Origin: a virus
DNA length: 40,900 bases
Strand: one strand, 5' to 3'
UHGV virus genome: UHGV-0205053
Part shown: piece by piece, positions 1 through 40,873 of the stretch
How the letters are laid out: every line of letters starts with the position of its first letter
Numbering within the stretch: the stretch's first letter is position 1
Program-made: the position numbers and the translations under genes
Notes under the pieces: generated by a model
What the model saw: the letters and a program-made list of their open reading frames with translations, nothing else
Told to the model about the DNA's origin: nothing
The model's database searches: none

Positions 1-12
1 ATCAAGGGATAT

Positions 13-492
13 ATGATGAAAAAATTCTTGCTAGCCGGTTTAGTCGTCATGCTTACTGGTTGTGCAGCAACAAAGAATGTTGATGTCGTTGCAACTGAAA
101 AGGCTCAGGGGGATCGAATTGTTGCCTTAAATTCTGCCAGGTCACCATGGGTTTACGAGATTGAAAAACGGTTAAAACAGAAAGGCTTTACCGTGCTTCG
201 AAGTGCAAGCCAACAAGTGACGGTAGAAAAACAATCCAATAGCACTACCGGTATTTATAACGAAGCTACTGCGCGTTATGTTCTGAACTTGAATGGTTTC
301 GCTCCAAATAACGCAATGACTCGTTGCTATGGTGGCGGGTATAATTTTGACTACATTGATGCTGAGCTAATTGACGTGAAAAAGAACCAGACAATGTTCC
401 ACTATTCTAACTCTGGTTACTCTGAAAATTGCCCGCCATTGTCAGGAACAATTTTCACTGATATCACCAATCTTGTTGCAGACTCCTGGTGA
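13..492 (+). CDS. Lipoprotein (signal peptide + lipobox LTGC); function unknown, possible superinfection-exclusion or receptor-masking moron
   Basis: N-terminus MMKKFLLAGLVVMLTGC reads as a classic lipoprotein signal with lipobox. It sits immediately after the last ejection-protein gene if the genome is circularised. I recognise no family. Confidence 0.55.
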   Translation: MMKKFLLAGLVVMLTGCAATKNVDVVATEKAQGDRIVALNSARSPWVYEIEKRLKQKGFTVLRSASQQVTVEKQSNSTTGIYNEATARYVLNLNGFAPNNAMTRCYGGGYNFDYIDAELIDVKKNQTMFHYSNSGYSENCPPLSGTIFTDITNLVADSW

Positions 493-531
493 TTTTCATG
501 TGACATGTCACAAAGGCCGCAGAGCGCCCAC

Positions 532-558
532 AAAAAAGCCCGCGACGCGGGCTTAAAT
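532..558. terminator. Bidirectional hairpin terminator (GCCCGCG-A-CGCGGGC) with an A-run on one side and a T-run on the other
   Basis: Sequence is aaaaaaGCCCGCGaCGCGGGCttaaat. On the minus strand the hairpin is followed by TTTTTT, so it terminates the 553..909 gene. It also lies downstream of the plus-strand lipoprotein gene. Confidence 0.55.
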
Positions 559-909
559 GTTGACTTTCTTTGGCGCTATTGCGGCTATTGATATCATGAA
601 TCCAGTCAGCATAGCCAGTATCAGAGGTATGATGAACGCATCCGATGTTCTAAGAGGGTTCTTCATGTCACATAGCATAACGAGGAAAAAACCACTCGTT
701 GCGAATGTAGTTGATGAATACACCTCGTTCAGTTTGTACTGAAGGTTAACAACGGAAAAGTTACCAGTCTCTTTTGAGAAAAAATCCCATATCAGGTGGA
801 TTACTATATACACAAGGCACAGGATACAATAAAAGATCGCCAGTTCCTGTGCCGTTTGTGGATTGTACCAATGTGATACTTGAGCGATCTCAGGCTGCAC
901 TGCCAGCAC
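553..909 (-). CDS. Small multi-pass membrane protein (3-4 TM helices); candidate immunity or partner protein for the upstream peptide
   Basis: Three to four strongly hydrophobic helices (FYCILCLVYIVIHLIW, FFLVMLCDM, IIPLILAMLTGFMISIAAIA). GTG start overlaps the 3' end of the 890..1090 ORF by 20 nt, suggesting translational coupling. Region is low-GC. Confidence 0.4.
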   Translation of the reverse strand: MLAVQPEIAQVSHWYNPQTAQELAIFYCILCLVYIVIHLIWDFFSKETGNFSVVNLQYKLNEVYSSTTFATSGFFLVMLCDMKNPLRTSDAFIIPLILAMLTGFMISIAAIAPKKVNI

Positions 910-1090
910 TCATTTTTTTAAAAATGTAGGTTCCTGCCATAGCAAGGCCACCGGTAATAGCGAAAAGATAGGCCACACCAGTAGTAACTGTGAACGCAGG
1001 AATGATCATAGACAGGCCGCCAGATAGAGCAAAACCGCTGCCTGCCCCACCAATAATGGCTTTCATTAAAGTTATGATGTTCAGTTCCAT
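890..1090 (-). CDS. 66-aa glycine-zipper hydrophobic peptide (GxxxG-rich, two predicted TM segments); bacteriocin-like or membrane-toxin-like
   Basis: Strong SD (GAGGAGAG) 5 nt upstream of the ATG. A sigma70-like promoter (TTGGCT-17-TAATAT) lies upstream. Sequence AIIGGAGSGFALSGG...ITGGLAMAG shows a Gly-zipper pattern. A possible short GG-ending leader (MELNIITLMKAIIGG) is speculative. Confidence 0.5.
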   Translation of the reverse strand: MELNIITLMKAIIGGAGSGFALSGGLSMIIPAFTVTTGVAYLFAITGGLAMAGTYIFKKMSAGSAA

Positions 1091-1115
1091 AATCTCTCCT
1101 CAGTAAACATCGCGT

Positions 1116-1130
1116 TTACCCATGGGGTAA
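1116..1130. promoter_or_regulatory. TTACC-CATGG-GGTAA palindromic operator overlapping the TSS of the Gly-zipper peptide promoter
   Basis: Perfect 5-5-5 inverted repeat. The same motif recurs at 10 or more sites in the window. It lies directly downstream of the TAATAT -10 element on the minus strand. Confidence 0.45.
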
Positions 1131-1285
1131 TATTACATCACTGATACGTGATAGCCAATTATTTTATAGCCGCATTGCCCTTTAAACAAAGGCACTTCCT
1201 TGTGCCAGCAGCCTCAGAACGCAGCTGTGTTTTTGGTGATGTACTGCGCGTGGGGCAGGTGTCGGCATAGAGCGTGATGCGCTTT

Positions 1286-1525
1286 TCACTTCCGCATTTT
1301 GAGGAGAATGAATACCACAATTAAAGAAAAAACTAGAAGTGGAATGCCATAACCACCTGATGGTGAAAATAACATATCTATATGCGAAGTATTGCTAACC
1401 ACAATTTCTGGAGGTGGGGTTTTACCTTTTGGTGGTGGGACATCAAACCCTGTTGGTTCTGGCAGGACGTTGCCAGAAGGAACATAACCGTTTTTGTATT
1501 CATCAGGTGTTGAGAAAACGGGCAT
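1286..1525 (-). CDS. 79-aa protein: N-terminal 32 aa homologous to the N-terminus of the 963-aa ejection protein (37982..40873), fused to a C-terminal TM anchor
   Basis: MPVFSTPDEYKNGYVPSGNVLPEPTGFDVPPP aligns with MPVYSSPEELSNGFTPAGNVLPEQTGFDVPLP. Good SD (AAGGAA) 8 nt upstream. C-terminus GYGIPLLVFSLIVVFILLKMRK is a TM helix with a positive tail. DNA identity is about 70 percent, so this is not a recent duplication. Confidence 0.5.
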   Translation of the reverse strand: MPVFSTPDEYKNGYVPSGNVLPEPTGFDVPPPKGKTPPPEIVVSNTSHIDMLFSPSGGYGIPLLVFSLIVVFILLKMRK

Positions 1526-1542
1526 GAATTATTCCTTGCAAA

Positions 1543-1896
1543 TCATATGGTTTTGTCGACCTTTTCATGTAATTTCACCAGCTCTGATCTTAAGAGCACC
1601 AATGGTGTCATTGCATCGACTATCGCGATAGTCAGTTTATCAAATTCTCTCTGCCACTCTTCACTTTTGCCATCTTCAGGGAGTGATTTCGCCAGCGCCC
1701 GATAACGCTCTACCAGTTCTTTGTGACTGCCAATGGCTACGGCTGGGGCACCAGAAAGCGCATCCTCAATCATTTGCACGATCTCTGAGTTCATGGAACG
1801 TCCGTTGCTTTTGGCTCGTTCAGCAACCGCATCACGCATCCCATCAGGGAATCTGAGGTTGAACTTATCCTGCATCTGGCTTGGGTATTTGCTCAT
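1543..1896 (-). CDS. mnt: Mnt/Arc-family ribbon-helix-helix repressor (Mnt-like, 117 aa)
   Basis: FNLRFPDGMRDAVAERAKSNGRSMNSEIVQMIEDAL matches the Arc/Mnt RHH signature (compare P22 Arc FNLRWPREVLDLVRKVAEENGRSVNSEIYQRV). Divergent from the arc-ant operon. SD AGGTGA. Confidence 0.7.
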   Translation of the reverse strand: MSKYPSQMQDKFNLRFPDGMRDAVAERAKSNGRSMNSEIVQMIEDALSGAPAVAIGSHKELVERYRALAKSLPEDGKSEEWQREFDKLTIAIVDAMTPLVLLRSELVKLHEKVDKTI

Positions 1897-1930
1897 AAGT
1901 CACCTGGAAAAATTATTCAAAATTATTATG

Positions 1931-1990
1931 GGGCCAAGTTGACATATTGCGCAATGGTGTTAAATTAATATCAGGTGTCAAGTTGGCCCC
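1931..1990. promoter_or_regulatory. Divergent Pmnt/Pant promoter-operator region flanked by a near-perfect 15-bp inverted repeat
   Basis: GGGGCCAAGTTGACA ... TGTCAAGTTGGCCCC (14/15 inverted). A TTGACA -35 hexamer faces each direction. Contains the 14-mer AAATTAATATCAGG that is repeated before cro. Confidence 0.5.
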
Positions 1991-2002
1991 AAGGAGGCTG
2001 AA

Positions 2003-2176
2003 ATGCAAAAATCACTTTGTACCGAACGTAAGAACATCAAATTAAACCTTAGGCTTCCAGAGAGGCTGGACCAAGAAATACGTCGCATGGCTGAAATGGA
2101 CTGCATTTCAATAAACTCTGCGATTGTGAGATTGCTAGCGAAGGGGGTGAGAGAGGAAAGGCTAAATGTGCAGTAA
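2003..2176 (+). CDS. arc: Arc-like ribbon-helix-helix repressor (57 aa); not in the ORF track because it is under 60 aa
   Basis: Strong SD AAGGAGG. KLNLRLPERLDQEIRRMAEMDCISINSAIVRLLAKG matches the Arc RHH signature. Sits between mnt and ant as in P22 immI. Confidence 0.7.
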   Translation: MQKSLCTERKNIKLNLRLPERLDQEIRRMAEMDCISINSAIVRLLAKGVREERLNVQ

Positions 2177-2246
2177 AAACAGTGAAGCCCAACGGTGTCC
2201 AGACCGTCAGGCTTCTAATTTGTCAGCAACTATCAGGTAAACCGAC

Positions 2247-3197
2247 ATGAATACTTTAGCACTGAAGCAAAATCATTGCACCATCAGCGTACCATTCCAC
2301 GGCACTGATCTGTTTGTGGTTAACCACAACGGCGAGCCATACACCCCTATGAAGCCGATTGTTGAAGGCATGGGTATGGACTGGGCTTCACAGTTTACGA
2401 AGATGAAGAAGCGTTTTAAATCAACCATTGTGGAAATCACAATGGTTGCCAGTGATGGTAAGTCTCGCTCGATGATCTGCCTTGCACTTCGCAAGTTGGC
2501 CGGCTGGCTCAATACCATCAGCCCAAACAAGGTTAAACCAGAAATCCGTGACCGCGTGATCCAGTATCAGGAAGAATGTGACGATGTGCTCTATGAATAC
2601 TGGACGAAAGGCCAAGTGGTTAACCCGCGCAAGGCTGCGAAGACTCAGCCTGGTAAAATCACCGCTGACCAGCAGTACGCCATTAAAGAAATGGTCATGT
2701 CTCGTGGACAGGCTCTTCCTAAGGATAAACAGGCTAAGGCCATTATCACAATGTGGTCTGCGTTAAAATCGCACTTTGGTGTTTCCTACAAAGATATCGA
2801 TGCCGGGCAGTTCAATGAAGCTGTGTCGCTCGTTGCCAGGATCCCCCTCGAAGGCGAATTAATCACCGCAAGAGAGATCTTCCTTGCTGAGGAAAAATTG
2901 AGTGCCGAAGTAGTGGAAGCTATCCGTGGGGTGGTAAAAAATAATACGAAGCGATATGAGGCATCTTTGAAGCCAGGCTACCGCGAGCACATCCATTCAC
3001 CTGAGGGCGTCCTTGGCTTGACGGAGCATTCACTGCTGATGAATCTCCTTCGTCAAATGGAAGATGATGGGCATGACGTCTCCGGGGCAGCAGCTGAGTT
3101 GACAACTATTTTCTGCTATGTGACAGGGGTTAGGCGCTGCATCAGCGACATTACTACCAACGCGCAGTATATTCTTAAGCAGGTGAAAGATTTTTAG
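2247..3197 (+). CDS. ant: Antirepressor Ant (AntA-like N-terminal domain plus C-terminal domain)
   Basis: N-terminus VPFHGTDLFVVNHNGEPYTPMKPIVEGMGMDW is typical of phage antirepressor N-terminal domains. Positioned after arc as in P22 immI. Confidence 0.7.
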   Translation: MNTLALKQNHCTISVPFHGTDLFVVNHNGEPYTPMKPIVEGMGMDWASQFTKMKKRFKSTIVEITMVASDGKSRSMICLALRKLAGWLNTISPNKVKPEIRDRVIQYQEECDDVLYEYWTKGQVVNPRKAAKTQPGKITADQQYAIKEMVMSRGQALPKDKQAKAIITMWSALKSHFGVSYKDIDAGQFNEAVSLVARIPLEGELITAREIFLAEEKLSAEVVEAIRGVVKNNTKRYEASLKPGYREHIHSPEGVLGLTEHSLLMNLLRQMEDDGHDVSGAAAELTTIFCYVTGVRRCISDITTNAQYILKQVKDF

Positions 3198-3199
3198 CA

Positions 3200-3640
3200 A
3201 TGGAAGGGCCGAGCATTCGGCCCATTCTTGAGGATCAGAACGTGAATAACCAGATTAAAGACCTTTGCTTCAAAGATAACGAATCAGCATTTGAATACGC
3301 GTGTAAGTATTGCACAACTGACATTGCAGAAAGACAAGGGCTTCTGGCGCTTGTTATTACGGATCAGGAACCAGATGGCGATGGTAACGCCTTATATGCA
3401 GTAAGGGTTTCATCCAATGACGGTGGATTTGTCGTTCCGGCTATTTTTATGGCAGCACAAGCTGATTTAGGCGCCTTAGTAAAAGGAGACCTTGTTATCT
3501 GGGTGCCATCACAGTATTCGGACGAAATGGCAAAAACGTTAGGCGATCCGAGAAAGGGATGGATGGGGTATTTATCAGCGAAAGTTGAACCAAAACTAAC
3601 TAAGTCAGATGGATGGGGAATTCAGGTCCGCTACATCTAG
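3200..3640 (+). CDS. Hypothetical protein co-transcribed with ant
   Basis: ATG lies 3 nt after the ant stop codon. No family recognised. Confidence 0.45.
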   Translation: MEGPSIRPILEDQNVNNQIKDLCFKDNESAFEYACKYCTTDIAERQGLLALVITDQEPDGDGNALYAVRVSSNDGGFVVPAIFMAAQADLGALVKGDLVIWVPSQYSDEMAKTLGDPRKGWMGYLSAKVEPKLTKSDGWGIQVRYI

Positions 3641-7915: not shown

Positions 7916-8195
7916 CATGCTTCTCATTCTGAACGCCGCTATCTGCGGCGGCATTGCAATCCGAGTACTTCTTTTCCGCCGTGACGGGTCACGCCATCGC
8001 TGGTGGGGCGGATGGCTCGCATATCTGCTGATCGTCGTCGCTGCCAGCGTGCCTATCCGGACATTCTACGGGTACTACGATTCCGCCGACTGGTCAGAAA
8101 TCATTATCAAGGCCGTGTTCCTGGCTGCGCTCATCAAGACAAAAGGGAATGTGGTGCAAATATTCAAGATAACGAGGTCCCAGCATGGACATTAA
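7902..8195 (+). CDS. Second holin or antiholin-like protein (2 TM)
   Basis: Two TM helices. Overlaps the previous gene and precedes the endolysin. Confidence 0.45.
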
Positions 8196-8814
8196 TCAGT
8201 TCCAGCGTGCAGCTGGTATCAGTGAGGTGCTGGCCGCGCGCTGGTACCTGCATATCACCGCCGCCATGAAAGAGTTTGGCATCGAGCTAACGCTGCACCA
8301 GGCGATGTTTATCGCGCAGGTTGGCCATGAGTCCGGCGGCTTCACTAGGCTGCAGGAGAACTTCAACTACAGCGTGAACGGGCTGGCAGGATTCGTCCGC
8401 GCCGGACGCCTCACCCAGGGCCAGGCTAACGCGCTGGGCCGCCGTGCCGGTGAACCATCGTTACCGCTGGAGCGGCAGCGTGCGATCGCCAATCTGGTGT
8501 ACAGCAAACGCATGGGAAATAACGGGCCGACTGACGGCTGGTTTTACCGCGGGCGCGGGCTTATCCAGATCACAGGTCTGAATAATTATCGTGACTGTGG
8601 CAACGGCCTGAAGGTGGATCTTGTGCAGAAACCGGAACTGCTGGCACAGGATGAGTATGCGGCCCGCAGCGCAGCGTGGTTCTTCGCCACCAAAGGCTGC
8701 ATGAAGTACACCGGCGGCCTGGTGCGCGTCACGCAGATCATCAATGGCGGCCAGAACGGTATCGACGACCGGCGAGCGCGGTATATCACAGCCAGTAAGG
8801 TGCTGGCGGTATGA
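8185..8814 (+). CDS. Endolysin, glycoside hydrolase family 19 (chitinase-like lysozyme)
   Basis: [21 protein letters not shown] and the NYSVNGL motifs are characteristic of GH19 phage endolysins. Confidence 0.8.
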
Positions 8815-9299
8815 TCTGGGCACTCGTCAAAGCGTACTGGAAACAGTTGCTTATCGTGGTGATGCTTGCTGCTCTGGTCATCGTCGGGGTGGTTGCCTGG
8901 AATGTACACGGCAGCCGCCAGTACGATGCCGGGTATGCAAAGGCACAGGAAGATCAGAAACAGGCTGATGATAAGGCCAGGTCACAACGTGATCAGGAGA
9001 AAACACAAATTGAACGTGAAGCACAATCCCGTATCGATGTGGCGCGTGTTGATGCTGAGCATGCTAATACCGCTGCTGACGGCCTGCGCGCCGAGCTTGA
9101 CAAAACCAAGCGACTCGCCGAACACTATACCGGATCTTTCCCCTCTGGCACGCCAGCCAGCAAGGTCATCGGTGTGCTCGCCGACATGCTTGAAGAAAGC
9201 AACCGAGCTTACATCGCAGCAGCAGAAGAGGCTGAGCGATATCGGTCTGCAGGACTCACATGTGAGCGACAGTACGACTCCCTGAAAACGGGGCACTGA
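8811..9299 (+). CDS. Rz-like i-spanin (N-terminal TM, coiled-coil periplasmic domain)
   Basis: N-terminal [20 protein letters not shown] followed by a charged coiled-coil. Position is after the endolysin. Confidence 0.7.
9037..9285 (+). CDS. Rz1-like o-spanin lipoprotein embedded entirely within Rz in the +1 frame
   Basis: [17 protein letters not shown] contains the lipobox LLTAC. The mature part is Pro-rich ([24 protein letters not shown]). Alternative starts at 9052 or 9061. Confidence 0.6.
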   Translation: MWRVLMLSMLIPLLTACAPSLTKPSDSPNTIPDLSPLARQPARSSVCSPTCLKKATELTSQQQKRLSDIGLQDSHVSDSTTP

Positions 9300-9449
9300 T
9301 TTCCGGTGACGGTATATAAAACGGTACGGTGAAAATCAGAGTTTAGAAATTTGTTACCAGTCAATTGGTTATGCATTCCGTAAATAATTGAGTGGGAATG
9401 ATGTATAGCTAGTTCATAGCACATCATATCTATTCAACTTCATCACTAA

Positions 9450-9480
9450 CCCTCTGTAATTGCAGAGGGTTTTTGTTTAT
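9450..9480 (+). terminator. Rho-independent terminator (CCCTCTG...CAGAGGG plus TTTTTGTTT)
   Basis: 7-bp stem followed by a T-run downstream of the lysis cassette. Confidence 0.55.
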
Positions 9481-9536
9481 ATCTACTCATATCTATTCAC
9501 TCTACACCACATTTTTCGACGGTACAGGTGACGGTA

Positions 9537-9551
9537 TTACCCGAAAGGTAT
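9537..9551. promoter_or_regulatory. TTACC-CGAAA-GGTAT (9/10) operator-like site upstream of int
   Basis: One mismatch to the recurring motif. About 40 nt upstream of the int start. Confidence 0.3.
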
Positions 9552-9592
9552 ACTCTCATACCGACAAAACATGGATGCATTACGGGTGAATT

Positions 9593-10846
9593 TTGCTTAC
9601 CGATACCAAACTTAAAAATCTGAAGCCGCAGGAGAAACTGTATAAGGTTTCCGACCGTGACGGGCTGTATGTCGCCGTGCTCACGTCAGGCTCTGTCTCG
9701 TTCCGCTACGACTACCGCATTAACGGCCGTCGGGAAACTCTGGTGATTGGCCAGTACGGTCGTGACGGTATCAGCCTGGCGGAAGCGCGCGAGGAACTCA
9801 TTGCCGCCAAAAAACTGCTGAAGGCAGGCCAGTCGCCAGCTGCGGCGAAACGTGACGGTATCAGGCAGATCGCCGGGGCCGAGACATTCGCGGTATATAC
9901 CGACGCCTACATGAAACACGTCACACTGGCAGACAGCACCCGGGCCATGAAGCAGGCGGTGATCGACAGGGACATCCTTCCGGCGCTCGGCAACAAGATG
10001 ATGACTGAGATAACCACCAGAGTGGTGCGCGACCTGTGCGATCGTATCGTCGAGCGTGGAGGCCGGGCTACGGCGATCCAGGTTCGGGAGATAATCAGTA
10101 GCGTTTATCGGTACGCCAATGACCGCGGGCACGGACTGTTTAATCCTGCTGCCGACATCAAGCCATCATCGATCGCCATGTTTAAGCCGCGCGAGCGCAC
10201 GCTGTCGCCTGAGGAAATTGGCATATTCTTCCGTGCGCTGGATGACGTCGGCGCGATGGGCACCATGAAGATGGCGCTGAAGCTGGTACTGCTGACGCTT
10301 GTGCGAAAAAGCGAATTTACCTACGCGACGTGGGCAGAGATCGATTTCAGGAACTGGACATGGACGATCCCCGCCGACCGAATGAAGGCAAGGCGCGCGC
10401 ATGTGATTTACCTGCCGAAGCAGGCGCAGGATCTGCTGGTCGGCCTGCAAATGTGCGCTGGTGGCAGTGAATACCTGGTGCCCGGGCGCTACAACTTCCG
10501 TAAGCCTTTATCTAACGCCGCCCTGAACTCACTTATCGACAGGACCGTGGAGACCATAAACAAAGACGGCGAGAAAATTCAGGACTTCACGGTGCATGAC
10601 CTTCGCCGGACGGCCAGCACGCTGCTGCACGAAGCTGACTATCCATCAGACTGGATCGAGAAGGCACAGGCCCACGAGCAGAAAGGCGTTCGCGCGGTGT
10701 ACAACAAAGCGGAGTATGCCAGGCAGCGCGCCTATATGTTGCAGCAGTGGGCGGATATGGTTGATTCCTGGATTAACGGGGAGCACACCGATCTGGTTCC
10801 GTTCTCCCCGTCGAAGTTTGAGAGGTGGATGGAAGGGAAGGATTAA
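9593..10846 (+). CDS. int: Tyrosine integrase, P4/CP4-57 type (N-terminal arm-binding domain plus catalytic domain)
   Basis: LTDTKLKNLKPQEKLYKVSDRDGLYVAVLTSGSVSFRYDYRINGRRETLVIGQYG is the typical IntA/P4 integrase N-terminus. Catalytic-domain motifs (HDLRRTASTLL) are present. TTG start. Confidence 0.85.
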   Translation: MLTDTKLKNLKPQEKLYKVSDRDGLYVAVLTSGSVSFRYDYRINGRRETLVIGQYGRDGISLAEAREELIAAKKLLKAGQSPAAAKRDGIRQIAGAETFAVYTDAYMKHVTLADSTRAMKQAVIDRDILPALGNKMMTEITTRVVRDLCDRIVERGGRATAIQVREIISSVYRYANDRGHGLFNPAADIKPSSIAMFKPRERTLSPEEIGIFFRALDDVGAMGTMKMALKLVLLTLVRKSEFTYATWAEIDFRNWTWTIPADRMKARRAHVIYLPKQAQDLLVGLQMCAGGSEYLVPGRYNFRKPLSNAALNSLIDRTVETINKDGEKIQDFTVHDLRRTASTLLHEADYPSDWIEKAQAHEQKGVRAVYNKAEYARQRAYMLQQWADMVDSWINGEHTDLVPFSPSKFERWMEGKD

Positions 10847-11436
10847 GCAGCCTCCACGTTTACGACGTTGATCGCGCAGCCAGGCAATAATTGCACCGCC
10901 GGGCCTTCACACTGATTCCCCCAAACGTCAAACCCATGCGACGACTGGCGGGCGAAAAGCTCAATGCGCGGCACATCGCCCAGCAACTGCACAAGTTTTT
11001 CCCGGATTACGTCAGGCTTGCGCGAATTCTCCAGGCGCGGCGCCGTGACGTGCTGGCAGATAGAGGCGTCCATGCGGGTCGGCAGTTTCCCGCGTACCGC
11101 AAACAGACAGTCTTCGCTGTTCGCCCGGGTCATGTGCCCCATGCCGATCGCGCTGTTACCTTTGTGCTTATTCGTCTTGTGCCAGGTGAATCCCTTCATG
11201 GTCATCAGCTTGAATCCCCAGGCTTCGACCACCTTCAGCGCTTCGACTGGTTGAGTCGGAACCCACCACATAGCCAGCAGGAAATCTTCAGCAGCAAGAT
11301 CCCACACCGGCAGGCGGCAGATATCCAGCACGTTCATGACCGGGTATTTAAACCCAGCGCCGCGGTTTCCGTCGGCAGCTTTGTCACGGTAGACCCAGGG
11401 CGGATCTGCATAAATCAGGGTGTATTTACCGGTCAT
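10843..11436 (-). CDS. N6-adenine DNA methyltransferase, MT-A70 family (DPPW motif)
   Basis: IYADPPWVY motif with an MT-A70-like fold. SD AAGGTGG. Confidence 0.75.
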   Translation of the reverse strand: MTGKYTLIYADPPWVYRDKAADGNRGAGFKYPVMNVLDICRLPVWDLAAEDFLLAMWWVPTQPVEALKVVEAWGFKLMTMKGFTWHKTNKHKGNSAIGMGHMTRANSEDCLFAVRGKLPTRMDASICQHVTAPRLENSRKPDVIREKLVQLLGDVPRIELFARQSSHGFDVWGNQCEGPAVQLLPGCAINVVNVEAA

Positions 11437-34273: not shown

Positions 34274-34737
34274 TGATTAAAGCTCAGATCGTACCGGCCA
34301 CCGCAGCGCATATCGAAGCCATGCTCCCGCATGTCCGCCAGGCTGACGTTGATGAATTTCTGGCGACAAACGGGTGGAGCCCGCGCCGCGTGCTTGAAAC
34401 CGGTCTGCGCACGTCAACATTTGCCTGTGCCGGTCTGATTAACGGTGAGGTGGTGACCATCTTTGGTGTGGCCCCGGCATCAATGATCGGCGGTAACGGT
34501 ATCCCCTGGCTGGTGGGCACCGACGCGCTGGAGAAATATCAGCGCACTTTCCTGCGCCGCTGCGGGAAAGTGGTCAATGCAATGCTGGCTGTTTACCCGT
34601 ATCTTGAAAACTATGTTGATGCCCGCAACCACACAGCGCGTATCTGGCTGCACTGGCTTGGATTCACCATTGAAGAACCACAGCCGTACGGCGCTCACGG
34701 TCTTCTGTTTCATCGCTTCCACATGGAGAGAAAATAA
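34273..34737 (+). CDS. Putative internal virion or assembly protein
   Basis: Position equivalent to T7 gp13. SD GGGGGA. Confidence 0.3.
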   Translation: MIKAQIVPATAAHIEAMLPHVRQADVDEFLATNGWSPRRVLETGLRTSTFACAGLINGEVVTIFGVAPASMIGGNGIPWLVGTDALEKYQRTFLRRCGKVVNAMLAVYPYLENYVDARNHTARIWLHWLGFTIEEPQPYGAHGLLFHRFHMERK

Positions 34738-35276
34738 TGTGCGAACCCACCACAATTTTAGCCGGTGCGACGCTCGCGGCAGGCGCATTGTCAGCCTACA
34801 ACCAGTATGAGACAGGCAAATATTCTGCCGCTGTTGCTGAGCAGAATGCGGATGTGGCAGAGGCTCAGGCGCAGGACTCGATTAACCGTGGCAATGCCCA
34901 GGCCGAGGAAGTGCGCCGCCGTAATCGTCAGGCTGCCGGGACACAGGCGGCGACAATGGGTGCCACCGGCGCTGACCTCTCAACCGGTAACGCTCTGGAT
35001 ATCTTCGGAGATACCGCTCAGTTCGGCACGCTGGATGCTCTGACGACCGTTAACAACGCCCAGCGCGAGGCTTACGGCTATCAGGTGCAGTCCGCCAACT
35101 ATGACGCCCAGGCGGTATCCGCGCGTAAGCAGGGGAATATGGGGGCGATGACAACGCTGCTCACAACGCCGATACAGGCTTACGGAGCCTATCAAATGGC
35201 TGGCGGTACGTGGTCGCCATTCTCACAGAAGGCAGCTCCTATCAGCGCAGCTGTCGGCACGCCAACCGGTCGATAA
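34737..35276 (+). CDS. Putative internal virion protein (gp14-like)
   Basis: Ala/Gln-rich. Position equivalent. Confidence 0.35.
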   Translation: MCEPTTILAGATLAAGALSAYNQYETGKYSAAVAEQNADVAEAQAQDSINRGNAQAEEVRRRNRQAAGTQAATMGATGADLSTGNALDIFGDTAQFGTLDALTTVNNAQREAYGYQVQSANYDAQAVSARKQGNMGAMTTLLTTPIQAYGAYQMAGGTWSPFSQKAAPISAAVGTPTGR

Positions 35277-35288
35277 GGAGATATCGAA

Positions 35289-37982
35289 ATGCCAACAGTA
35301 CCAACAGTCAGCGGGCGCCAGGTTGAAAGCCGCGGATTCCAGTCTCCCGGATTTCAGGCATTAGAACAGCCGAATGTCGGCGACGTCATTTCTCAGGTCG
35401 CGCCAAAGGCGATCGACATGTTCGCGCAGGCCAAGCAGCGGGCAAACGTGGCTCTTTCACAGGAGGCCAGCTTAAAGCTCAGTCAGGCCGAAGAGGATTT
35501 AAAGACCCAGCTTTACAGCCTGAAGGGCCAAAACGCCATCGGTAAGGGTCAGGAGTTTACGCAGCAATATGATGAGCAGATCCAATCCCTGGCCTCGTCG
35601 CTACCTGATGACGCATCGCGCCAGATGTTCATGCAGCAGGCGCAGCAGCAGCGCATCCAGTTTCAGGGAAACGTTGGCCGCTACGAGCAGGGGCAGGTCA
35701 GCGAGTTTGAAGGCAATCAATACGATGCCACCAGACAGTTGCAAATCCAGAAAGAGGCTGATGCGTGGAATAATCCCCAGGAAGCTATTCTCGCAAAGAA
35801 TATTCGCACAGTAGCAACAGCGAGATTCGGTGCCTCAAGGGGTTGGTCGCAGGAGCAGATTCTGGCTGCCATTGAAAAAGATAACCTTGCCGCCACTGAG
35901 ATGAGAGCTAAAAACTATGCAGTTGATAACCCGCTTGGGTGGATGAACGGTGAGTTTTCAGCAGATGATACTGGTGGTCTGGATATGCGATCTGTAGGTA
36001 TCGTCGAGTCAGGTGGTAAGCATCTTAATTCAGACGGGTCAATTGTCACTTCTTCAGCTGGTGCTCAGGGCCGTTTCCAGTTAATGCCTGAAACAGGCAA
36101 AGAACTGGCCGCACGGCGTGGGCTGAAGTACAACCCGGCAGACGAGCAGCAACACACCATGCTGGCCTCGGATTACGCGCAGGAACTGTCAAACAAGTAT
36201 GGCTCTGAATTACTGGCTGGAGCAGCATATAACTGGGGGCAGGGCAATGTTGACAAACTTATTGAGAAGATCGGTGATCCAAGAAAAGGAGAGATATCCC
36301 AAGCCGATTTCATAAAAAAACTACCATCTGAAACGCAGGGTTGGATTTCACGATACCGTAAAAATAAAACCGGTATGGATCCAGTTACCGTTAATCAAAT
36401 TGATAATCTTGCAAACGCTCAGATTGAGAAGCAGAGAAAACTGGTACTTAATGAGCTCGAACCGCTGCTCAACAATACAATGGCTCAACTCAATAATGGC
36501 GAAGTCCCTGATGCCGTTCCTTCTATCCCGGCGATTATGTTTGGCTACGGTGAGCAAGGGAAAAAAATGGTATCGAAGCTCGATATCGCTATGGACAATG
36601 CAAAAACTTTCCAGGCAATTCAGTACCTTTCTCCAGAACAGCAGCAGCAGGAATTACTCAAAAAGAAACCAGAGGTAAATGACCCTGAATATGCGCTCAA
36701 ACTCGATGCGTATGGCAAGCTAGGCGCGCTGGTGCAGAAAAGTAATGAAGCGATACAGGCGCAGCGTGATGCCCGTCGTTTTAACGAAGCGCTGTCTATG
36801 GGCGAGAAACTCGACCCTACCAATAAATCCATGCAAAAAGCCGCCGACGCCACGCCAACGGCGCAAAACTTCCGGATTAACGACGCCACCACCCATGACG
36901 GGATTGTGCAGCAGGTGGCCCAGACCGGGATCATTCCTTCGCAGGTAACCACCCAGTTATCGGCGATATCCCGCGCGCGCAGTCCTGAGGCGGTCCGTCA
37001 GGGGGCTGAGTTATTTAATCGCCTCTATGACGCAGACCCAGCATCTGTCGGCGAAATGCCCAAGGATATGCAGGGATTTTATCTCACCGTTAAGCAGCTA
37101 ACTGATTCTGGCATGGCACCTGAATCAGCTATAGAACAGGCTCATAACCTCTCATACAACCAGACCGATGCGCTCAAAGCGCAACTGGCATCAACCCAGA
37201 GCACAAAGGAATATAAAAAAGACCGGGCTAAGGCAATGGATTCAGCCGTAAGCAATATGTCTCCCTGGTATAGCTTTGGCGGACCATCGGCAGATGACTC
37301 AACTCCAGATGCTGCAAGATTCAGAAATGATTATCAGGCGCTGTACGACATCAATTACCGCACCACCGGCGGTAATGCGGATGCGGCCAAAAAAATGACT
37401 AACCAGCAGATCGCCCGCACATGGAGCATCAGCGAAGTTAATGGCAGCGCGAAGTTGATGAAATATGCACCAGAGGCGCTTTATAACTATGGGCCTTCTG
37501 GATGGCAGGCAGAGCAGTGGAAGGCAGATAAAGAGCAACTGATGTATGGCGACCGTAAGGTAGACATCACTACAAGCCCGACACAACTCGGGATCACCTC
37601 CGGCAACTCAGCACCTGTTACCAGTAAAACGCCGGAGTCGCGTATTGGCGGCGAACTGGAGATTACCCCTGATGTGCTGACGGCCCGCAATGGAGATTAC
37701 GCCATTATGGTGCGAACAAAAGATAAGGATGGTATTGAGGCGGTACAGCCGTTCTACGATTCTTACGGCAGGCCTATGCGGTGGAAACCCTCTTTGGATG
37801 AATGGGAGCCATATAAAAAATCTATACAGGAAAGAGAGCAAAAAGATCAGGAAGAAATCATCAAGGGTCAGGAAATTCGCGGCTTTAAAGATAAACACCG
37901 TGCAATTGATGAACAGTATCGCAGGTTCCACGATGATCGTGTTAATCGCTTCAAAAACTATTTCTCATGGAGTAATGAATAA
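35289..37982 (+). CDS. Internal virion or ejection protein with a lytic transglycosylase (SLT) domain
   Basis: SLT motifs ES (VESGG), GRFQLMPET and AYNWG are read. 897 aa. Confidence 0.7.
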   Translation: MPTVPTVSGRQVESRGFQSPGFQALEQPNVGDVISQVAPKAIDMFAQAKQRANVALSQEASLKLSQAEEDLKTQLYSLKGQNAIGKGQEFTQQYDEQIQSLASSLPDDASRQMFMQQAQQQRIQFQGNVGRYEQGQVSEFEGNQYDATRQLQIQKEADAWNNPQEAILAKNIRTVATARFGASRGWSQEQILAAIEKDNLAATEMRAKNYAVDNPLGWMNGEFSADDTGGLDMRSVGIVESGGKHLNSDGSIVTSSAGAQGRFQLMPETGKELAARRGLKYNPADEQQHTMLASDYAQELSNKYGSELLAGAAYNWGQGNVDKLIEKIGDPRKGEISQADFIKKLPSETQGWISRYRKNKTGMDPVTVNQIDNLANAQIEKQRKLVLNELEPLLNNTMAQLNNGEVPDAVPSIPAIMFGYGEQGKKMVSKLDIAMDNAKTFQAIQYLSPEQQQQELLKKKPEVNDPEYALKLDAYGKLGALVQKSNEAIQAQRDARRFNEALSMGEKLDPTNKSMQKAADATPTAQNFRINDATTHDGIVQQVAQTGIIPSQVTTQLSAISRARSPEAVRQGAELFNRLYDADPASVGEMPKDMQGFYLTVKQLTDSGMAPESAIEQAHNLSYNQTDALKAQLASTQSTKEYKKDRAKAMDSAVSNMSPWYSFGGPSADDSTPDAARFRNDYQALYDINYRTTGGNADAAKKMTNQQIARTWSISEVNGSAKLMKYAPEALYNYGPSGWQAEQWKADKEQLMYGDRKVDITTSPTQLGITSGNSAPVTSKTPESRIGGELEITPDVLTARNGDYAIMVRTKDKDGIEAVQPFYDSYGRPMRWKPSLDEWEPYKKSIQEREQKDQEEIIKGQEIRGFKDKHRAIDEQYRRFHDDRVNRFKNYFSWSNE

Positions 37983-40873
37983 TGCCTGTGTATTCCTCGC
38001 CAGAAGAACTGAGCAACGGATTTACTCCTGCTGGCAATGTTCTGCCAGAGCAGACAGGGTTTGATGTGCCTTTGCCTGAAGGAACCAACCCGGAGCCGCA
38101 GCAACCAGAACCATCGGTATGGGGCGCCGCCTTCCGCCAGAATAACCTTCTGGCCGAGATGTTCCGCCCGGCCAAGCAGTTTGAGTCGGTAGAATGGTAT
38201 AACCCTTATGCTGATAAAACCGAGCTGCACGGGTACGAACAATGGGGATCTGCTTTTGCTGATTCCCGTTCACCGGAAGAAACTGCCTGGCTTAAACAGC
38301 AGATTGACGACGAAAACGAGGACCGTCGGGTACTTTCAGAGGCGGGCGGGGAGGGTGTCCTGGCCAGTATTGCCGCCGGGGTTGTCGACCCGGTTACAGT
38401 CGCTTCGATGTTTATTCCCGGTGCTCAGGGCGGTACAGTGGCCCGTATCGCGTCACAGGCTGCTATCGGTGCAGCTGCAACAGCAGCGAGCGAGGTTGCG
38501 CTGAACAACCAACAGATCACCCGCACGTGGGGGGAGAGCGCTTCCCACGTCGCCGCCGGTGCGTTGATGAGCGGTGTATTTGCGGCTGCCGGTGCTGCGC
38601 TTTCGCCATCTGTCCGCACTGCGGCCACGCGTGAAGTGGCTGATGCGCTCGATAATATGAGTATCACGTCAGCGACGGACACGGCTGCTGCCTCGCTTCC
38701 CGAAGGTGGCAGCGTCGGCGCGGCGCGAATCAGTGAGGCCACGCTCGAGGATCTCACCCCGGCAGCTGGCGGACCGGTCGGTAAACTGGCACGTAAGGCA
38801 GGGAGCTATCTGACACCGTTTACCCGCCTGATGGAGTCACCGTCTAAAACCTCCCGCCGCACCGCGCTTGAGCTGGCAGAGAATAACTACACACTGCAGG
38901 GCAATGCCCGCGGCATTGAGACACCTATTGCGGCGGAAACCCGTGTTCGCGGGTGGCGTCGTGAAGAAGCTGCTGTCGTGGTGACCAACAAGCAGGCCTA
39001 CAGCCAGTATAAAGCCGCCGGGGGCGACCTGAGTTTTTCACAGTTCCGTGAGGAGGTAGGTAACGCCATGCGCAGCGGTGATGTGCATGCTAATCCGGTG
39101 GTGCAGGAAGCGGCGCAGGCAATGCGCACCGTTGTTAATCGGGTGAAAGTGGCACAGCAAAAGCTTGGCCTGTTGCCACCTGACGAGGAACTGAAAGCCA
39201 TCGGCCAGGAGAGTTATTTCCCTCGCGTGTACAAAGTCGGCAAGATTGTCAACGAGCGTGATAAATTCCGCGACATGCTGGTTGACTGGTGGTCGCGTGG
39301 TGAAAAAACCATGTCCCGCGAAGAGGCGGAAATTACGGCCGATGCCACGATTAATAAAATTGTCGGCGCAAAAATTCCCCAGGATTTCGCAAACGTCTTT
39401 ATGGTGAAATCGGCAGGAAGCACCCGGGCGCGTACGCTCAGTGTTCCAGATCGCCTGATGAAAGATTATCTGGAGAGTGACGCCAACTATGTGTTACAGC
39501 GACACATTCGCGAGGCATCGGCAGAGGTTGAGCTTACCCGTGCATTCGGTAACAAATCCCTGGAAAAGCAGCTCAAGGATATTCAGGACGAATACGATGC
39601 GCTGATGCGCCAGAATCCCAAAGACCAGGCAAAACTGGCGAAAGCCCGCGATAACGATATCCGGGATATCACAGCGCTACGAGACCGCCTGGCGGGCACC
39701 TATGGCATGCCTGACGATCCATCATCATTTTTCGTGCGCGCTGGTGCGTTTCTACGCAGCGCTAACTTTGTCACCAAGCTGGGCGGTATGACCGTTTCCG
39801 CTATTCCTGATCTTGCGCGCGGTGTGATGGTTAACGGGTTTGGCAATACCATGCGCGGCTACTCTTCGCTGATCACCCGATCACCTGCATTCAAGGCCAG
39901 CCGGGCCGAGCAGTTAAAAATGGCCGTCGGGCTGGAAACCATCCTCCACACCCGCGCACGCACGATGGGTGACCTTGTGGACAGTTCCGCCCGGACAACG
40001 GCAGTGGAAGCGGGTATGGAGCGTGTTACCGATGCGTTCGGCAAGCTCACGCTGATGGGTCACTTCGATGACATGAACAAATCGGTAAACGGTATGATCA
40101 CGTCCGACGGTATTCTTTCCGGCGCATTCACCGGCCGCCGCCTGGCTAAGCTCGGCATTAACGATAATATGGCCGCACGCATCCGCGGCGAATTTGAAAA
40201 ACACGGCGAAGTAATCGATGGCTGGCATATCGGCAATTTTGAAAAATGGGACGATCAGCACGTTGCAGGCGTTTTCCAGTCTGCGGTGCTCAAAGACGTT
40301 AACAATACCGTTATCACTCCGGGGATCGGCGATACACCACTGTGGGCCAGTACGCCGCTGGGTAAAACCATCTTCCAGTTTAAATCCTTCGCCACTGCAT
40401 CCTATAACCGAGCGACGTTGGGCGGCCTGCAGGAGGGAACCGGTCAGTTTTATTACGGCACCGCATTCCAGATTGCATTGGGAGCACTGACGTACGCGCT
40501 TAAACAGTCTGCAAACGGTAAAGAGGTAGACTGGTCGCCGCAGAAACTTGCTATTGAGGGGATTGACCGATCAGGTATCCTCGGTCCTCTGATGGAATAC
40601 AACAATATGGCTGAGAAGGCTACCGGGGGTATGGTTGGCCTTGGGGCGCTACTCGGAACCGGCACGCAGTCGAGATATGCCAGCCGTGGTTTTATTGGCT
40701 CTGCCCTTGGGCCAACGTTCGGTCTGCTGGACACTATTACTGATGTGACTGCCGGGGTGCTGAATGGCGACGCTGGTGACCGGGTTCTGCATAACGTGCG
40801 TACACTTCTTCCTGGCAACAACCTGTTCTGGATTGCGCCATTGATAAACCAAGTGGATCCAGGGTTAAGGTAA
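37982..40873 (+). CDS. Large internal virion or ejection protein
   Basis: 963 aa, last gene of the morphogenetic module. Its N-terminal 32 aa are copied in the 79-aa protein at 1286..1525. Confidence 0.55.
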   Translation: MPVYSSPEELSNGFTPAGNVLPEQTGFDVPLPEGTNPEPQQPEPSVWGAAFRQNNLLAEMFRPAKQFESVEWYNPYADKTELHGYEQWGSAFADSRSPEETAWLKQQIDDENEDRRVLSEAGGEGVLASIAAGVVDPVTVASMFIPGAQGGTVARIASQAAIGAAATAASEVALNNQQITRTWGESASHVAAGALMSGVFAAAGAALSPSVRTAATREVADALDNMSITSATDTAAASLPEGGSVGAARISEATLEDLTPAAGGPVGKLARKAGSYLTPFTRLMESPSKTSRRTALELAENNYTLQGNARGIETPIAAETRVRGWRREEAAVVVTNKQAYSQYKAAGGDLSFSQFREEVGNAMRSGDVHANPVVQEAAQAMRTVVNRVKVAQQKLGLLPPDEELKAIGQESYFPRVYKVGKIVNERDKFRDMLVDWWSRGEKTMSREEAEITADATINKIVGAKIPQDFANVFMVKSAGSTRARTLSVPDRLMKDYLESDANYVLQRHIREASAEVELTRAFGNKSLEKQLKDIQDEYDALMRQNPKDQAKLAKARDNDIRDITALRDRLAGTYGMPDDPSSFFVRAGAFLRSANFVTKLGGMTVSAIPDLARGVMVNGFGNTMRGYSSLITRSPAFKASRAEQLKMAVGLETILHTRARTMGDLVDSSARTTAVEAGMERVTDAFGKLTLMGHFDDMNKSVNGMITSDGILSGAFTGRRLAKLGINDNMAARIRGEFEKHGEVIDGWHIGNFEKWDDQHVAGVFQSAVLKDVNNTVITPGIGDTPLWASTPLGKTIFQFKSFATASYNRATLGGLQEGTGQFYYGTAFQIALGALTYALKQSANGKEVDWSPQKLAIEGIDRSGILGPLMEYNNMAEKATGGMVGLGALLGTGTQSRYASRGFIGSALGPTFGLLDTITDVTAGVLNGDAGDRVLHNVRTLLPGNNLFWIAPLINQVDPGLR

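Follow-up and report, generated by a model that had tools for sequence, protein, structure and literature searches.

The window analysed here is the whole 40,900-nt stretch of the virus genome UHGV-0205053. The genome, from an epsilon15-like podophage or prophage, is circularly permuted; its structural genes are 78-85% identical to their counterparts in epsilon15, SPN1S, phiV10, PAT1 and Tyrion, and its immI region, which is of the P22 type, includes mnt, arc (2003..2176) and ant (2247..3197). mnt is the first gene of an operon on the minus strand, and the second gene, here called ORF79, encodes the protein MPVFSTPDEYKNGYVPSGNVLPEPTGFDVPPPKGKTPPPEIVVSNTSHIDMLFSPSGGYGIPLLVFSLIVVFILLKMRK. The features in and around ORF79 are as follows.

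1191..1206, minus strand: weak terminator-like hairpin, 80 nt past the ORF79 stop codon, seen only in a consensus scan
1286..1525, minus strand: ORF79 (79 aa, from the ORF list), predicted membrane-anchored paralogue of an ejection-protein N-terminus, of the type that carries module A only
1289..1357, minus strand: predicted transmembrane (TM) helix of ORF79 (about codons 57-75) and KMRK tail (codons 76-79), from hydropathy and AlphaFold2
1352..1408, minus strand: linker of ORF79 (codons 40-58)
1409..1525, minus strand: module A of ORF79 (codons 1-39), proline-rich and predicted to be extended
1526..1531, minus strand: 6-nt spacer between AAGGAA and the ORF79 ATG
1532..1537, minus strand: Shine-Dalgarno-like AAGGAA, read from the sequence, with its 3' end 6 nt 5' of the ATG
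1543..1896, minus strand: mnt, encoding an Arc/Mnt-family repressor of 117 aa (Pfam Arc, E=1.9e-19; phrog_3178)

The ATG of ORF79 lies 17 nt beyond the stop codon of mnt, in agreement with an earlier note on this DNA, which had placed the frame in the mnt operon behind a good Shine-Dalgarno site. ORF79 is probably co-transcribed with the lysogeny repressor gene mnt, and it would then be expressed in lysogens. The two ends of the window are contiguous in a relative, L049, so that the genes actually run from the ejection gene through a lipoprotein gene (13..492) and a pair of minus-strand genes for membrane proteins of 118 aa and 66 aa to ORF79 and then mnt. Because L049 spans the junction of the window ends, ORF79 falls, as the note had claimed, in the interval from the last ejection gene to mnt. 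No RNA family was matched in a Rfam scan of positions 1-3500. With positions 1-2300 as the query, megablast found nothing near-identical among sequenced phages, and only the 66-aa/118-aa moron was matched in E. coli genomes.

The other genes of interest encode the ejection proteins, on the opposite strand.

34737..35276, plus strand: gp14-like ejection protein, identified by Pfam T7_gp14 matches on the syntenic orthologues in L002 and L008
35289..37982, plus strand: 897-aa ejection protein with an SLT domain (phrog_1044, Pfam SLT), the positional equivalent of gp15
37982..40873, plus strand: gp963, a 963-aa T7-gp16-like ejection (internal virion) protein (phrog_342, E=1.9e-203)
37982..38101, plus strand: module A of gp963 (residues 1-40), where the protein varies more than in any other 40-aa window
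38174..38341, plus strand: module B of gp963 (about residues 65-120, YNPY..GYE..DSRSPEET..IKQQID), from alignments
38357..38416, plus strand: first hydrophobic segment of gp963 (residues 126-145, hydropathy 1.77)

Module A of ORF79 is homologous to residues 1-40 of gp963. In a BLASTP comparison with composition-based statistics, residues 1-40 of the two proteins aligned with 25/40 identities (E=2e-18). The earlier note had described a copy of the first 32 residues; the homology stands, but the alignment reaches residue 40. Its figure of about 70 percent DNA identity is close to the 68.8% measured across the first 96 nt. The linker of ORF79 has no detectable counterpart in gp963 by alignment. 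When 1.84 billion representative proteins were searched with a profile, the only matches were members of the ORF79 family and ejection-protein N-termini, which indicates that the match is specific and not an effect of composition. gp963 itself was aligned over residues 24-960 to positions 203-1224 of the phrog_342 profile. That profile did not match ORF79; indeed, no model in PHROGs, Pfam, NCBIfam or PADLOC did (in PADLOC-DB, none at E<=1).

ORF79 has a single hydrophobic segment. The Kyte-Doolittle maximum for 19 residues is 2.41, starting from residue 57, and the segment is followed by KMRK. AlphaFold2 predicted a helix at residues 60-78 (pLDDT 84-87) behind an N-terminal domain nearly devoid of secondary structure (pLDDT 52-63). 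The single C-terminal TM helix with a positive tail that had been noticed from the sequence is borne out by these predictions. ORF79 is without a signal peptide; its N-terminal domain is net negative (6 D/E versus 3 K/R) and its tail is basic. By the positive-inside rule, and from homologues that bear signal peptides (see below), we infer that ORF79 is a single-pass protein of the inner membrane with its N-terminus in the periplasm.

Purifying selection acts on ORF79, which is a real gene. Among 5.8 billion proteins searched, seven clusters of homologues were identified, with intact lengths of 79-81 aa and 54-87% identity, from Salmonella, Citrobacter, Kluyvera and metagenomes; the exact sequence is present in Enterobacter (E. 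hormaechei assemblies), where it is annotated as 'hypothetical protein'. The sole exception is cluster P0008 (101 aa), a frameshifted version. Between loci, dN/dS (Nei-Gojobori) was 0.13-0.19 at dS 0.31-0.76. In the 39 codons of module A, those copied from the ejection protein, it was 0.06-0.17, and module A is the more constrained half of the gene. Certain residues are fixed in every locus in ORF79-type proteins (T6, Y10, Y14, V15, S17 and K33), whereas the ejection proteins have, at paralogous positions and again in every locus, L10, F14, T15, A17 and E33. These fixed differences point to an old duplication after which each copy has been constrained separately.

ORF79 is the shortest representative of a wider family. 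The earlier note had proposed looking in other prophages for N-terminal pieces of ejection proteins joined to TM anchors; profile searches, including that of 1.84 billion representatives, produced about 20 further clusters from Serratia, Pluralibacter, Klebsiella, Providencia, Morganella and Salmonella. Every further member consists of part of the N-terminal ~120 residues of an ejection protein followed by a C-terminal TM helix and a basic tail (for example YRRLRK, YRKITR or SRRSIKN), and the helix and the tail are conserved in all family members. We divided the ejection-protein part into module A (residues 1-40) and module B (residues ~65-120, YNPY..GYE..DSRSPQET..IK..ID); the latter is present in the long and the B-only members and absent from ORF79. 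The following types were recognized.

A + TM: the ORF79 family, 79-81 aa, the shortest members
A + B + TM: P0019 and P0021, 134 aa
Divergent N-terminus + B + TM: P0022-P0027, P0029 and P0031, 121-137 aa
Signal peptide, with or without a phrog_8772 domain, + A + B + TM: P0020, P0028, P0030 and P0032-P0039, 162-330 aa
A + B + three TM helices: P0017 and P0018, 224-236 aa

The relationship of these proteins to the ejection protein was also detected directly: P0017 matched gp963 with E=3e-20, and P0019 and P0020 weakly matched positions 242-301 of phrog_342 (E=1e-3 and 1e-4, respectively). Compared with the ejection proteins, the long members have two deletions in common (11 aa and 3 aa), and their TM helices start at the alignment column of the first hydrophobic segment of the ejection protein, a region in which ORF79 is gapped. 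The common deletions and the shared starting column indicate a family of single origin, derived from the 5' part of an ejection gene. Between the ORF79 family and the long family, hhalign gave a probability of 97%. ORF79-type proteins have no direct sequence relation to the core of module B (E=0.23 against P0031), and their tie to the long members lies in module A, the common architecture and the identical genomic slot. The number of independent lineages sampled is small. All members with a source annotation are listed as hypothetical or uncharacterised, and many have no annotation.

P0020, P0028, P0030 and P0032-P0039 begin with Sec-type signal peptides, composed of a basic stretch, a hydrophobic core and an AxA-type motif. 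These were judged by reading the sequences; hydropathy was computed for P0020 only (residues 1-23). The signal peptides would place the homologous domain of the long members in the periplasm. They support the proposal that the copied domain of ORF79 is periplasmic too, the topology of ORF79 itself being predicted. In AlphaFold2 models of the family, module A is disordered, module B forms a small helical element (pLDDT 72-86) and the TM helix is confidently predicted. An extended module A modelled at low confidence is what may be expected of a segment that folds on binding.

The position of the family gene was compared in the window and in L001-L009, L015-L017, L052, L065, L098-L103 and L105-L107. 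In every locus with genomic context, the gene lies downstream of the stop codon of the ejection gene and on the opposite strand. Other nearby genes vary. They are mnt in the window group (L002-L009 and L105-L107), with the order of mnt followed by the family gene conserved, an integrase gene in L001, antirepressor-like genes in L015-L017 and L098-L103, and terminase genes in L052 and L065.

In the Salmonella prophages L105-L107, the exact slot of ORF79 is occupied by the B-only type P0031, which overlaps the mnt stop codon by 4 nt. P0031 is the commonest cluster, indexed in 288 blocks of the collection. The flanks of L105 and L002 are homologous: identity is 89% across arc and mnt upstream, and a patch directly downstream of the gene is 83% identical; between these flanks lie the dissimilar A-only and B-only genes. 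Two dissimilar fragments from one region of the ejection protein, each anchored by a TM helix, thus replace one another at a single locus, which argues that the ejection-derived part carries the function. We regard this replacement as the strongest argument for a function of that part.

The family gene is accessory. Such a gene is carried by only 6 of the 80 close relatives from IMG/VR, which have 74-99% identity for the ejection protein. A tblastn search of INPHARED with ORF79 and one long member returned only ejection-protein N-termini and no family gene, and scanning species-representative genomes with the ORF79 family alignment gave no match. In L021, the pair of membrane-protein genes is kept at 98% identity, and a different antirepressor replaces mnt and ORF79.

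Module A is variable in the ejection proteins and mobile among the family genes. In an alignment of 65 unique ejection-protein sequences, its mean column identity was 0.728 versus 0.875 overall, which ranked it first in variability among 47 windows. Nucleotide identity between the genes of P0034 and P0035 is 97-100%, but it falls to 37-77% over the ~90 nt encoding module A. Module A has been swapped as a cassette between near-identical family genes.

One idea considered was that each member tracks the ejection protein of its own phage. This held in three deep lineages, where module A of the family gene was 56-64% identical to that of the cognate ejection protein, compared with 39-48% between members of different lineages. 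It failed in L098 and L101, where module A of the family gene matched the variant of other phages (the L016 type) rather than that of the resident; module A of P0034, in turn, matched the L098 type. The copied segment is therefore not always a match to the ejection protein of the resident phage, contrary to what the earlier note had implied. The mixed picture indicates that one pool of module A variants supplies both ejection proteins and family genes, which are not strictly genome-matched. The best patches of DNA similarity between family genes and ejection genes are 72-83% identical, which indicates that the exchanges are not recent and that no recent gene conversion has occurred.

A functional model for ORF79 may be found in SieA of P22, an inner-membrane superinfection-exclusion protein that blocks DNA injection and is encoded between gene 16 and immI; escape mutants map to the ejection proteins gp16 and gp20 (Leavitt et al. 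2024, PMC10883804). The available text of that study reports no homology between SieA and its target ejection proteins (PMC10883804). The sieA gene and ORF79 are alike in their place in a podophage prophage, with the last ejection gene on one side and the immI/tailspike region on the other, and both products are inner-membrane proteins, by prediction in the case of ORF79. They differ in other respects. SieA has 164 aa, with several TM segments described, and its gene has its own promoter, whereas ORF79 has 79 aa with one TM helix and is second in the mnt operon. SieA targets ejection proteins of the P22 type, whereas the phage in the window has a T7/epsilon15-type gp14/15/16 set. ORF79 was considered as a member of the SieA family (types A-C, proteins of about 160 aa or more) and rejected (BLASTP E=25 against P22 SieA; FxRYPxEAxxFNK motif absent; a single TM helix in 79 aa).

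In P22, orf59a is directly downstream of mnt and sieA lies further on. By this layout, ORF79 is in an orf59a-type slot, and the sieA-type slot of the window is taken by the 66-aa and 118-aa pair. The description of the locus as equivalent to that of sieA thus holds for the region but not for the exact slot. Despite the equivalent position after mnt, ORF79 and P22 orf59a are unrelated.

The segment copied in ORF79 may correspond to a known structural element of T7 gp16. Residues 1-156 of T7 gp16 form a transglycosylase domain, and residues 157-228 form the 'molecular tape' of the periplasmic tunnel, which binds and stabilises the gp15 hexamer (PMC8954989). The tape resembles module A in being an extended segment of the last ejection protein, ahead of the membrane-associated part (PMC8954989). 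On phrog_342, residues 164-400 of T7 gp16 fall at positions 154-395 and residues 24-133 of gp963 at positions 203-322. By these coordinates, which give an approximate mapping, module A would lie near where the tape region ends, with module B immediately beyond. A PDB sequence search with the ejection-protein alignment gave chance-level matches only, hhalign of the same alignment against T7 gp16 gave only a C-terminal match of 6.9% probability, and Foldseek matched the model of P0019 to nothing in PDB; the proposed correspondence therefore comes from the PHROG coordinates alone. Unlike T7, the window phage has its SLT domain in the 897-aa protein rather than in the gp16 homologue.

Taken together, these observations lead us to favour, as somewhat more likely than not, the reading that ORF79 is a dominant-negative superinfection-exclusion protein. 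According to this model, ORF79 would be made in lysogens together with Mnt and would sit in the inner membrane with the copied segment exposed in the periplasm. As the core proteins of a related podophage are ejected, the site needed by the incoming N-terminal segment would already be taken by the tethered copy. The molecular tape of T7 gp16 suggests, by analogy, that this site would lie on the C-terminal arms of the gp15-like tunnel protein, and we propose the 897-aa protein as the binding partner and target of ORF79. The periplasmic/inner-membrane conduit for DNA would then fail to assemble, and DNA entry would be blocked. The binding partner and the exclusion phenotype are inferred here, as are expression in lysogens and the topology of ORF79. 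ORF79 is without module B, the most conserved part of the wider family, and an A-only protein might therefore act differently.

More tentatively, and with a probability that we put well below that of exclusion itself, the whole family may form a modular system in which epsilon15-like prophages tether, in the periplasm, pieces of the gp15-binding 'tape' of their own gp16-like ejection protein and so poison the ejectosome of incoming relatives as it assembles, with module A setting the specificity and being exchanged as a cassette between ejection genes and tethered copies in an arms race. Such an exchange, if true, would explain why the N-terminus is the most variable part of the ejection protein. 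The variability in ejection proteins could instead reflect weak constraint on a disordered tail and no arms race.

Four other explanations were weighed against exclusion at the gp15-like protein. The one that survives best, although we consider it unlikely, is that ORF79 excludes by masking a periplasmic or inner-membrane factor of the host needed by the N-terminus of the ejection protein, and not by binding the gp15-like protein of the incoming phage. The architecture, the position and the evidence for selection apply equally to this mechanism, and gp15 of HK97 is a precedent, its block of entry involving a host inner-membrane protein. The cassette swapping and the high variability of module A, however, fit an interface between phages better, and no host partner is suggested by the present data.

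ORF79 might also serve its own phage in a way that is not defensive, for example at the membrane, by handling, positioning or regulating ejection protein that has just been made, or by affecting the timing of lysis. Such a role would suit the tight linkage of the family gene to the ejection gene, the two being 0-3 nt apart or overlapping in L001, L016, L098 and L101. Yet the gene is on the strand opposite the late operon and, in the window group, inside the mnt operon; virion production does not need it, since 74 of the 80 close relatives, and every sequenced phage searched, are without it; and the copied domain is predicted to be periplasmic, away from assembly in the cytoplasm. We regard this role as improbable.

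About equally improbable is the view that ORF79 is a membrane protein of lysogenic conversion unrelated to ejection, in which a proline-rich periplasmic spacer, inherited by duplication, has been reused. The predicted disorder of module A and the lack of matches in PADLOC, Pfam, NCBIfam and PHROGs are compatible with it, but a mere spacer would hardly be the more constrained half of the gene (dN/dS 0.06-0.17), nor would it account for dissimilar fragments, module A in ORF79 and module B with a divergent N-terminal stretch in P0031, in the same slot. The last alternative, raised in the earlier note, that ORF79 is a recombination scar or pseudogene, a functionless remnant of the 5' end of the ejection gene, draws on the 69% DNA similarity and the frameshifted P0008 but is rejected as very improbable in view of the dN/dS of 0.13-0.19 at dS 0.3-0.76, a frame that is intact and of conserved length throughout the seven clusters and all loci compared, across genera, the conserved Shine-Dalgarno site, TM helix and basic tail, and the fixed residue differences between the two paralogues.

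Exclusion by a tethered copy of the ejection protein would have relatives in principle. Several envelope proteins of phages or prophages, namely gp15 of HK97, Imm and Sp of T4, Cor and the Llp lipoproteins, stop the entry of superinfecting DNA; to our knowledge, none of them is a paralogue of the component that it blocks. They were compared with ORF79 via PADLOC and PHROGs only, in which ORF79 had no match. In retroviral restriction of the Fv1/Fv4 type, a resident viral homologue or binder interferes with the incoming virus. Prophage FimU-like pilins are reported to provide a resident copy of a structural component as a defence (PMC12952977), and Tab to block virion assembly (PMC10884400). A search of full-text literature found no ejection-protein paralogue used for exclusion and only these pilins and Tab as analogues. 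The pilins, Tab and Fv1/Fv4 share with the proposed action of ORF79 the principle that a structural homologue or binder hinders an incoming virus, but they act at other steps (the receptor pilus, virion assembly, and the capsid or receptor), none of them on ejection proteins.

Prophage membrane proteins that block DNA entry are known; a design built from the target protein itself would be new. If the favoured reading is true, ORF79 would be, within the literature searched, the first superinfection-exclusion protein paralogous to the ejection protein that it blocks, and a natural dominant-negative probe of how the periplasmic/inner-membrane conduit of podophages is assembled. It would show which segment of gp16-like proteins contacts the gp15-like tunnel protein, and it would offer a model for the recognition of fast-evolving ejection proteins by Sie proteins, a question left open by the study of P22 SieA (PMC10883804). 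The small 'hypothetical proteins' of this kind in Salmonella, Enterobacter, Citrobacter, Klebsiella, Serratia, Providencia and Morganella would gain a function, and their presence would bear on predicting the resistance of lysogens to therapeutic or typing phages of the epsilon15-like type.

Directly downstream of the gene for gp963, the 963-aa T7-gp16-like ejection protein, lies a gene for a predicted lipoprotein:

13..492, plus strand: 159-aa predicted lipoprotein, N-terminus MMKKFLLAGLVVMLTGC...

This protein weakly matched the Cor superinfection-exclusion PHROG phrog_1119 (E=0.0018), and the match was confined to residues 2-34, the part comprising the signal and lipobox. In every lineage, different cargo separates the ejection gene from the family gene, that is, the gene for an ejection-protein N-terminal paralogue with a C-terminal transmembrane helix and basic tail. 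The cargo in this interval is DUF2335 in the Salmonella loci and a pair of ORFs (105 aa and 170 aa) in the relative L008. The most divergent locus of the ORF79 type, the shortest in the family, is that of P0007 (81 aa; L001 7736..7981). The P0007 gene is preceded by an integrase gene, not by mnt, and it runs convergently to the ejection gene (7978..10869), the two overlapping by 4 nt at their 3' ends.

The long signal-peptide members of the family (P0020, encoded at L016 3845..4825, P0030 and P0032-P0039) carry an additional N-terminal periplasmic domain, which matches phrog_8772 (E=5.8e-38), a PHROG without a function label. In P0020, P0033 and P0039, a partial second copy of the motif (FTLPKNRGWDIP) of module A, the segment corresponding to residues 1-40 of gp963, is found upstream of the main copy. 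Many short database "proteins" with the ejection N-terminus in common (P0040-P0053) were rejected as family members; they come from draft assemblies, in which the calls for full-length ejection genes are frameshifted or truncated. If counted naively, such entries could make the family seem larger than it is. Within gp963 itself, residues 521-560 (39542..39661) form a second variable window, with a mean column identity of 0.742 versus 0.875 overall; its variability is close to, but below, that of the N-terminus.

The intergenic region between mnt and arc contains an inverted repeat with 14 of 15 positions matching:

1930..1944: arm GGGGCCAAGTTGACA
1976..1990: arm TGTCAAGTTGGCCCC

Each arm includes an outward-pointing TTGACA hexamer, and judging from the sequence the arms resemble -35 boxes and operators of two divergent promoters, Pant and Pmnt. 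A promoter scan made a single call at the repeat, a plus-strand promoter at 1939..1966.

In P22, sieA occupies the position held here by two overlapping genes for small membrane proteins, each assigned to a PHROG without a function label and together equipped with a promoter-like site and a strong terminator:

1186..1158, minus strand: promoter-like site
890..1090, minus strand: 66-aa membrane protein, phrog_13406
553..909, minus strand: 118-aa membrane protein, phrog_36716
554..536, minus strand: strong terminator

No similarity was found between the 118-aa protein and SieA. Three E. coli chromosomes contain stretches 85-88% identical to the gene pair, and the relative L021, which lacks mnt and ORF79, keeps the pair at 98% identity. 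The two genes could constitute a separate exclusion or toxin/immunity moron.
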